A stretch of DNA of 64,000 nt from Dictyostelium discoideum (Eukaryota), in NCBI GenBank assembly GCA_000004695.1, contig CM000151.3, positions 864,001-928,000 of the forward strand, in the 5' to 3' direction. A model generated the notes under the pieces. It was not told the DNA's origin and ran no database searches. It saw only the letters and a program-made list of their open reading frames with translations. Position numbers and translations under genes: made by a program. Below are positions 26,518-27,888 of the stretch, one piece after another; positions within the stretch are counted from its first letter, which is position 1, and each line of letters starts with the position of its first letter.

Positions 26518-26966
26518 ATGCAAACCAGTGAATGTAAAGTTAAAGGTCCAATCCAAGAAGGTTGTGCCTCTGGATGTGAAAAAAGCTGGAGTGCCTACCA
26601 AGCATGTTCAGGTCGTGTTGCCAAATTAGAGCATGACGAAAAAGCAAACTGTTTAGGTCAATTTTTAGAACATGTTCAATGTATTGATAAATGTGTATGT
26701 ATTTTATATCCTTTTTTTTATTTTTTTTTGTTTTTTTTTTTTTTTAATTAAAAAAATTAAAAAACTTTATTTTTTCATTTTTTCTTTTAATTGTTTTGTT
26801 TTGCGTGTGTGTTTTTTTTATTTTTTATTTTTTTTTTTTTGTGTTTCGATTTGGTAAAAATGTTTTTATTTTATTTTTATTTTTATTTTATTTGGTTATT
26901 CAAATAATTAAATTCGTTTTGTAAAAACAAAAATAGAATTTCTTCATTTATGGTATTGTTACAGTT

Positions 26967-27013
<47 letters not shown>

Positions 27014-27041
27014 TTGCCACCATTGCCACCACTTAGTATCA

Positions 27042-27130
<89 letters not shown>

Positions 27131-27375
27131 TTTGATTATTATGAATAATGGTAGCAGCATTGTTTGTAGTATTATTACTACTAATTTTAAATTTAAATAA
27201 TGAAACTTTTAATAATATTATTGCAACAATTATTATAATATCAAAATAATGATCATAAGCAGAAAGATTATTGCTATCATCCATTTTATTTGTTTATTTA
27301 TTTTATATTTATATGATATTCAGATTTGTTATTTTTATTACTATAATAATTTAAATTTAAATTTTTAAATTATTT

Positions 27376-27412
<37 letters not shown>

Positions 27413-27888
27413 ATAAAATAAAATAAAATAATATAAAATAATAAAAAAAAATAAAATAATATAAAATAAAATAAAATAAATAAAAATTAAATTAAATTAA
27501 GGAAGATACATAAAAGACGATGATTAAAAATTGTGGATAAAAAATTATAATCAAAGGTTATAATATTTAAATCAAAAGTGTGTGTGTAAGCATGTACAAT
27601 AGTTGGTTAAAAGATATTATTGGTAGTTGATTGCTTGTTCCTTGTTGATATTATTATTATTTTTATTGTTATTGTTATTGCTATTTATTTTATTATTACT
27701 GTAGTTTTATTTTATTATTATATTATTATTATTTTTTTTTTTTATAATTTTTATTTTTTTTTTTTTATTTGTTTTTTATTTGTTTTTTTATTATTATAAT
27801 TTTTTAAACATTTTACTAATCATAACTTTACTTTTTCAATTACTTTTTTTTTTTTTTTTTTTTAGGTTGGACCAAAATTATTTGCTCA
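26518..27888 (+). CDS. Ubiquinol-cytochrome c reductase hinge protein (complex III subunit 6, QCR6/UQCRH-like); 2 exons separated by a 1161-nt intron.
   Basis: Exon 1 is 26518..26694: MQTSECKVKGPIQEGCASGCEKSWSAYQACSGRVAKLEHDEKANCLGQFLEHVQCIDKC, with donor TGT|GTATGT. No AG dinucleotide occurs between 26745 and 26935. The only downstream acceptor giving a hinge-like C-terminus is T(21)AG|GTTGGACCAAAATTATTTGCTCAATTAAAGTAA at 27856..27888 (phase 0), which yields ...CIDKCVGPKLFAQLK*. This matches the family signature C..RV...H.E..C.EEL.DFLH..D.CVA.KLF..LK. Confidence 0.75.
27039..27284 (-). CDS. Possible small membrane protein (81 aa: one TM helix FDIIIIVAIILLKVSLF plus polyN), antisense and nested within the hinge-gene intron.
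   Basis: ORF-track entry starting MDDSNNLSAYDHYFDIIIIVAIILL.... There is no homology signal, and the tail is (AAT)n. It may be non-coding. Confidence 0.2.

Follow-up and report, generated by a model that had tools for sequence, protein, structure and literature searches.

Does the long intron of the Dictyostelium discoideum hinge gene carry a gene of its own? The hinge gene (uqcrh/QCR6, complex III subunit 6) lies on the + strand of a 64-kb stretch of D. discoideum nuclear DNA (hereafter the window; guanine plus cytosine [GC] content, 12–35% per kb) and consists of two coding exons and one phase-0 spliceosomal intron. This GT-AG intron occupies 26695–27865 and is 1171 nt long, with 12.6% GC. 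On its opposite strand runs an unannotated small open reading frame (ORF) of 81 codons at 27039–27284. Comparison with the orthologous introns of other dictyostelids suggests that in D. discoideum, D. firmibasis, and D. purpureum, all of group 4, the intron probably hosts a gene that is nested on the antisense strand, has so far been missed by annotation, and encodes a microprotein with a single membrane span.

The small ORF starts at an ATG at 27284 and is read on the minus strand. Its N-terminal peptide is MDDSNNLSAYDHYFD..., and the translation (MDDSNNLSAYDHYFDIIIIVAIILLKVSLFKFK...) continues into poly-Asn and ends with KK and the stop codon. The conserved core comprises codons 1–32 (27189–27284); its short N-terminus is acidic and leads into one hydrophobic helix, with K/R residues after it. 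The Kyte-Doolittle maxima over 19 residues are 2.35–2.73, and the helix scores as a transmembrane helix. The poly-Asn tail is encoded by an (ATT)n microsatellite at 27046–27142 (32 copies, 93% matches), which reads as AAT on the minus strand. The first-pass annotation of the window had listed this 81-codon ORF with its poly-Asn tail at exactly these coordinates, and the (ATT)n repeat that it placed in the intron was also found. Directly beyond the stop codon of the small ORF, a 9-nt tandem repeat (CATTGCCAC, 2.2 copies) occupies 27012–27031 within an intron that is poor in GC elsewhere; D. firmibasis has other sequence there.

The base composition around the small ORF is also gene-like. Upstream of the antisense ATG lies a block (27379–27500) that is A-rich on the + strand and T-rich on the minus strand, including a T31 run at 27380–27410. 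The AT skew is +0.43 to +0.54 in this block and +0.4 to +0.6 over 27350–27550, in an intron whose two ends are T-rich on the host strand, and the same A-rich block is found upstream of the antisense ATG at 7050–7300 of the D. purpureum locus. The flanks of the small ORF, T-rich upstream and A-rich downstream, mirror those of the hinge gene itself. The stretch 27379–27500 may be the promoter of the nested gene or its 5′ leader.

Homologous ORFs were found on the same strand of the orthologous introns of D. firmibasis (locus L006 of CM069770.1, 6178–7317, 1140 nt) and D. purpureum (locus L001 of GL871058.1, 6184–7584, 1401 nt). The D. firmibasis ORF has 101 codons, with its ATG at L006 6707, and reads MDDSNLSAFDHYFDVIIIVAIILLKVSLFKFNSS... 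and then poly-Asn; that of D. purpureum has 39 codons (L001 6806–6925; MEGNYHVYNHYCDIILVVIVIILKVVIFRFSNYLVVLFK). The tail is variable: D. discoideum and D. firmibasis have poly-Asn there, and D. purpureum has a short hydrophobic stretch. Compared with D. discoideum, the (ATT)n repeat is longer in D. firmibasis, and the D. purpureum ORF lacks it. When the D. purpureum peptide was searched by tblastn against the six frames of the window, the D. discoideum ORF was the best match at 36.6 bits, with the next at 26.6 bits. The reverse search against the 13.6-kb D. purpureum locus gave 36.6 bits, compared to 23.5 bits for the next match, so that the two ORFs are reciprocal best hits. The D. purpureum intron contains a second short match to the 5′ end of the small ORF (CAGAAAGATTATTGCTATCATCCA) at L001 6629–6652, with 23 of 24 columns aligned and one gap (z about 6). 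It lies ~150 nt past the stop of the D. purpureum ORF, reads in frame as GDSINLSG followed by a stop codon, and could have arisen by chance or as a duplicate that has since decayed.

We then compared the first 33 codons of the ORF between D. discoideum and D. firmibasis. The 10 differences fall 1, 1, and 8 on the three codon positions (binomial p about 0.003). The proportion of changed synonymous sites (pS) is 0.385 and that of changed nonsynonymous sites (pN) is 0.039, giving a pN/pS of 0.10. In the hinge coding sequence of the same species pair, pS is 0.28 and pN is 0.024, indicating that the constraint on the small ORF is similar to that on its host. The indels in the small ORF, of 3 and 6 nt, are in frame. 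The codon-position test alone is ambiguous because one + frame shares its third positions with the minus-strand ORF; a stop census separated the two. Among the six frames of the core, only the frame of the minus-strand ORF is free of stops in D. discoideum, D. firmibasis, and D. purpureum, and each of the other five carries 1–6 stops in every one of the three species. All three species also share the start context, in which AAAATGG comes after an A-rich run. These results point to conservation of the ORF under purifying selection in the orthologous introns of these species. What is new here is that an antisense small ORF is conserved in two related amoebae as expected of a real, unannotated mini-protein gene; that it is such a gene is fairly likely.

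These features suggest how the nested unit might work. The antisense ORF would be transcribed as an independent unit from its own promoter, with the T-rich upstream region and the AAAATG start at 27284, and the unit would comprise the conserved ~30-codon core, the variable tail, and the A-rich downstream region. Its predicted product is a small single-pass membrane protein whose N-terminus would be outside or lumenal and whose K/R side would be cytosolic according to the positive-inside rule. We infer both transcription and translation into a membrane microprotein from these sequence features. A further proposal is that the nested gene is confined to group 4 dictyostelids, that its transcription, convergent with that of its host, couples or antagonizes hinge expression by interference or an antisense effect, and that the nesting keeps the intron above 1 kb. 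We regard this as decidedly improbable. The orthologous intron of Heterostelium album is 816 nt long without a recognizable small ORF, which also weighs against a nested gene in general; therefore, a nested ORF alone does not explain intron length.

Other observations likewise weigh against a coding function. The length of the ORF is by itself within chance, as the same 2.6 kb has other ORFs of 49–77 aa; it is therefore conservation, not length, that makes the small ORF notable. The triplet repeat leaves two of the three minus-strand frames open. The conserved part amounts to only ~30 codons rich in I, L, V, and F, which are easily produced at 87% A+T, and only 10 substitutions lie behind the third-position pattern. 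For D. discoideum and D. purpureum, 14, 10, and 14 differences fall on the three codon positions, without three-periodicity, and pN/pS is 0.48 in a comparison that is saturated; the C-terminal tails of these two ORFs are unrelated. No homolog of the small ORF was detected in the loci of Polysphondylium violaceum, Tieghemostelium lacteum, and H. album, and the ORF is not present in the annotations of D. discoideum AX4, D. purpureum, and D. firmibasis. The small ORF was absent from a collection of 15 billion proteins by exact look-up. A profile search at E ≤ 10, which covered 5.8 billion proteins, gave no homolog, nor did phmmer with 1.84 billion representatives as the target, and scanning JGI metagenome contigs with the back-translated sequence yielded nothing. 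All Pfam matches to the small ORF were below threshold and were due to its transmembrane and poly-Asn composition.

These points would also fit an antisense ORF that is no gene at all, in which case the conserved ~100 nt would be a non-coding element with one frame open by chance, for instance an intronic regulator of hinge-gene transcription or splicing, and neutral expansion of low-complexity sequence would account for the remainder of the intron. Such a reading accommodates an ORF that is short, unannotated, and without homologs in AT-rich DNA where ORFs of 49–77 aa are common, the missing codon periodicity between D. discoideum and D. purpureum, and the wide range of intron lengths, both in species that have the ORF and in those that lack it. 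It also gains from a 54-nt block at 27500–27553 (GGAAGATACATAAAAGACGATGATTAAAAATTGTGGATAAAAAATTATAATCA), which is clearly non-coding and conserved even better than the small ORF. D. discoideum and D. firmibasis hardly differ in it: 28–30 of 30 columns are identical, compared with differences of 28–38% at synonymous sites. Against a non-coding element stand the concentration of differences at third positions between these two species at the same pN/pS as in the host gene, the in-frame indels, the retention of the ATG and its context, a single stop-free frame in three species, and a skew of the flanks that resembles that of a gene. On balance, we hold the non-coding reading to be rather unlikely and prefer a nested microprotein gene.

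The 54-nt block contains no ORF, has no Rfam match, and forms no stable fold (z-scores of −1.4 and +0.4). A second block conserved between D. discoideum and D. firmibasis lies at 27591–27623. When the blocks in 27495–27645 were sought in D. purpureum by a GC-weighted Smith-Waterman alignment with shuffles, nothing exceeded a z of 1.3. Blastn between the introns of D. discoideum and D. purpureum gave no useful signal, since AT-rich low-complexity sequence aligns everywhere at 55–65% identity. The 54-nt block is situated beyond the A-rich block, at a place suited to an upstream regulatory element of the antisense unit, and may be a regulatory element.

Conserved non-coding blocks such as 27500–27553 and 27591–27623 could also mean that the intron is long through hosting a non-coding RNA gene for a small nucleolar RNA (snoRNA), a microRNA (miRNA) hairpin, or a class I RNA, the ORF being incidental. 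There is precedent in D. discoideum, where two introns are known to contain miRNA loci, mir-1180 and mir-7102 (PMC6161686). However, no Rfam match at E ≤ 10 and no tRNA were found over 26400–28100. Folding of the intron gave no stable window: per 110 nt, the minimum free energies were −4 to −11 kcal/mol. Inspection by eye showed no arrangement of the box C/D or H/ACA type. Without a family match, a tRNA, or a stable structure, an intronic snoRNA or miRNA is unlikely, and we consider the non-coding RNA reading as a whole very improbable.

The nested gene presupposes that the host intron is real. Exon 1 of the hinge gene (26518–26694) begins with the ATG at 26518 and has 59 codons (MQTSECKV...HVQCIDKC). 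Exon 2, a terminal micro-exon at 27866–27898, has 10 codons (VGPKLFAQLK) and the stop codon TAA. Splicing joins ...CIDKC to VGPKLFAQLK and yields a product of 69 aa that ends in ...CIDKCVGPKLFAQLK and matches the family motif C-[VA]-x-P-K-[LIV]-F-x-x-L-K. This product is 100% identical to the D. discoideum AX4 hinge protein (EAS66929.1/XP_001134613.1/UniProt Q1ZXP3; DDB0233077), so the gene model, including the long intron, is already in the curated public annotation. An exon-1 phosphopeptide of uqcrh (Q1ZXP3), GPIQEGCASGCEK, has been reported by mass spectrometry in D. discoideum mitochondrial proteomics (PMC8584165).

It might nevertheless be asked whether the long intron is an annotation artefact and the gene ends nearby, by read-through or in another exon. 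A read-through ORF of 77 aa does exist at 26518–26751 (C-terminal sequence ...CIDKCVCILYPFF...), and two public models from other species, described below, use nearby alternative ends. However, these ends are without the family C-terminus, which was seen only in the spliced product. The Pfam profile UCR_hinge (PF02320) matched the product with exon 2 over positions 6–65 of 65 at 56.7 bits (gathering cut-off 27.2), whereas its match to the read-through ORF ended at position 56 with 39.3 bits. The QCR6 chains of solved complex III structures match the spliced product to its last residue (E down to 4e-13), and the aligned chains end in ...CAAPKIFAHLK (9f5x) and ...CVAPKLFAKLK (8bel). A relaxed pattern for the hinge C-terminus had one match in the 5.3 kb downstream of the donor, at 27866, right behind an AG. 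In addition, an exon of the VGPKLFAQLK type, preceded by a T tract and AG, lies downstream in every species, D. firmibasis and H. album included, and the junction agrees with the solved structures and with environmental contigs that lack the intron. An artefact is thus extremely improbable.

An obsolete 105-aa model (UniParc UPI00004E3BBE) spliced from ...FAQL past the stop codon into a Ser/Gly-rich low-complexity stretch near 28160 (27896–28270). The frame of this extra stretch is not maintained in D. firmibasis, which indicates that the current 69-aa model is right.

The splicing signals are those of a U2-type GT-AG intron, with a donor, a branch-like site, a run of 20 T residues, an AG, and a reading frame that is restored across the junction. 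The donor GTATGT (26695–26700) is the same hexamer in D. firmibasis and P. violaceum; D. purpureum and H. album have GTAAGT, and T. lacteum has GTAGGT. A branch-site-like TACTAAT, read by eye from the sequence, lies at 27814–27820, ~46 nt upstream of the acceptor. D. firmibasis and D. purpureum share the core ACTAAT(CA), to which ACTAAC corresponds in P. violaceum; the TACTAAT at 27814 is the putative branch point. The T tract and acceptor occupy 27844–27865, with the T run at 27844–27863 and the AG at 27864–27865. The intron would be removed through the GTATGT donor, the TACTAAT branch-like site, the T20 tract, and this AG.

With these signals placed, the first-pass description of the hinge gene can be corrected in detail. 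It rightly divided the gene by a long intron, as borne out by the identity with Q1ZXP3 and the whole-length Pfam match with exon 2; it rightly ended exon 1 at ...HVQCIDKC before a GTATGT donor at 26695; and it rightly saw in exon 2 the sole completion of the hinge C-terminus. Its 33-nt final exon exists, but at 27866–27898 and not at 27856–27888, which is 10 nt too low. Consequently, the intron has the start given there and ends at 27865 instead of 27855 (1171 nt instead of 1161). The T tract before exon 2 was also seen, with 20 nt found compared to 21 claimed. A run free of AG does follow the donor; it extends for 240 nt, up to the first AG at 26935, and not for ~190 nt. The expected product of 70 aa was one residue too long.

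The length of the intron was described as about ten times the typical length, and this agrees with published values. Across the genome, introns of D. discoideum average 132.55 bp, with a median of 104 bp (PMC4683709). A crude heuristic scan of the window, too coarse to bear out the 58–135 nt that the first-pass description gave for all its other introns, yielded clean introns of 88, 108, and 115 nt and some longer unverified candidates.

We located the orthologous hinge gene in five other dictyostelids and in Carica papaya. All five dictyostelid orthologs are split at the same codon boundary as the D. discoideum gene, an identical phase-0 boundary with ...DKC before it and V/A-x-PK.F..LK behind it. 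Besides the D. firmibasis and D. purpureum introns given above, those of P. violaceum (L007 6178–6519), T. lacteum (L008 4178–4337), and H. album (L009 of GL290990.1, 4172–4987) measure 342, 160, and 816 nt, respectively. QCR6 of papaya (L010 2890–3113; DS981522.1) has an intron at the same boundary, between ...CIDKC and VAPKLFEKIK, and its terminal exon likewise has 10 codons; the papaya intron at this position is roughly 90 nt long. Since the position is common to dictyostelids and papaya, it is probably ancient, and only the length is unusual. The 10-codon terminal exon appears to predate the split of Amoebozoa and plants or to have arisen in parallel. In group 4, the intron has grown to 1.1–1.4 kb. 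The hinge gene is therefore a clear example of an ancient intron that, in a single clade, ranges in length from 160 to 1401 nt, or about ninefold.

The expansion concerns the whole locus and not the intron alone. The order of the hinge gene and a P450 gene (31437–32937 in the window) is kept in the window and in all five other dictyostelids. The gap between the two genes (27899–31436) is ~3.5 kb in the window, 3–4 kb in D. firmibasis and D. purpureum, and 0.9–1.6 kb in T. lacteum, H. album, and P. violaceum. The gap in the window contains no ORF of at least 90 aa except a low-complexity one at 28105–28422, and it has no Rfam match. Thus, the locus beyond the intron is also expanded in group 4.

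Automatic gene callers fail on a terminal micro-exon of 10 codons that follows a long intron. The NCBI model of D. firmibasis (KAK5574738.1) has 66 aa and ends in ...CLHSKMKR, and the model of H. album PN500 has 65 aa and ends in ...CNYKMVVLV; both miss the conserved C-terminus and use a false terminal exon. The true terminal micro-exons lie at L006 7318–7350 in D. firmibasis (VGPKLFAQLK and a stop codon) and at L009 4988–5020 in H. album (AAPKIFAQLK and a stop codon), and with them both models can be corrected.

The contigs without the intron come from environmental sequencing of a P. violaceum-like organism. In four of them (L002–L005; JGI 3300028160/63/64 and Logan SRR8446436), a hinge ORF of 69 codons is uninterrupted. 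They are collinear with P. violaceum genomic DNA for ~1 kb past the stop codon, and three of them share their first base, which lies ~80 nt upstream of the ATG. They are either long transcripts or evidence of an intron-less genome or an intron-loss allele.

How does this locus compare with known systems? The hinge protein itself is without difference from Q1ZXP3 and the UCR_hinge family, with the whole-length domain, the conserved Cys pattern, and the C-terminal CV.PKLF..LK. Its gene differs from other UCR_hinge genes in intron length alone, 1171 nt compared to the genome median of 104 nt, and the long intron, being already annotated, changes nothing by itself. The interest, which is modest, lies in the small ORF, a cheaply testable candidate for both a microprotein and a nested gene, two classes little explored in D. 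discoideum. The predicted product resembles the transmembrane microproteins sarcolipin, phospholamban, and sarcolamban, yeast Pmp1/Pmp2, and OST4 in its size class, one helix, short charged flanks, and being missed by annotation. It has no sequence similarity to them; the likeness is one of architecture only, and membership in these families is unsupported.

Nested antisense intronic genes are known from the cuticle-protein gene in an intron of Drosophila Gart, from the human NF1 intron with EVI2A, EVI2B, and OMG, and from intron 22 of F8 with F8A. In Dictyostelium, such arrangements should be rare, since introns of ~100 nt leave no room for guests, and a literature search found no description of a nested antisense intronic gene in this genus. 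The guest in the hinge intron differs from those of Gart, NF1, and F8 in having only ~30 conserved codons and in being a candidate known from sequence alone. It resembles them in being an opposite-strand ORF wholly within one intron, with its own start context and gene-like flanks, and in that guest and host have been kept together across species.

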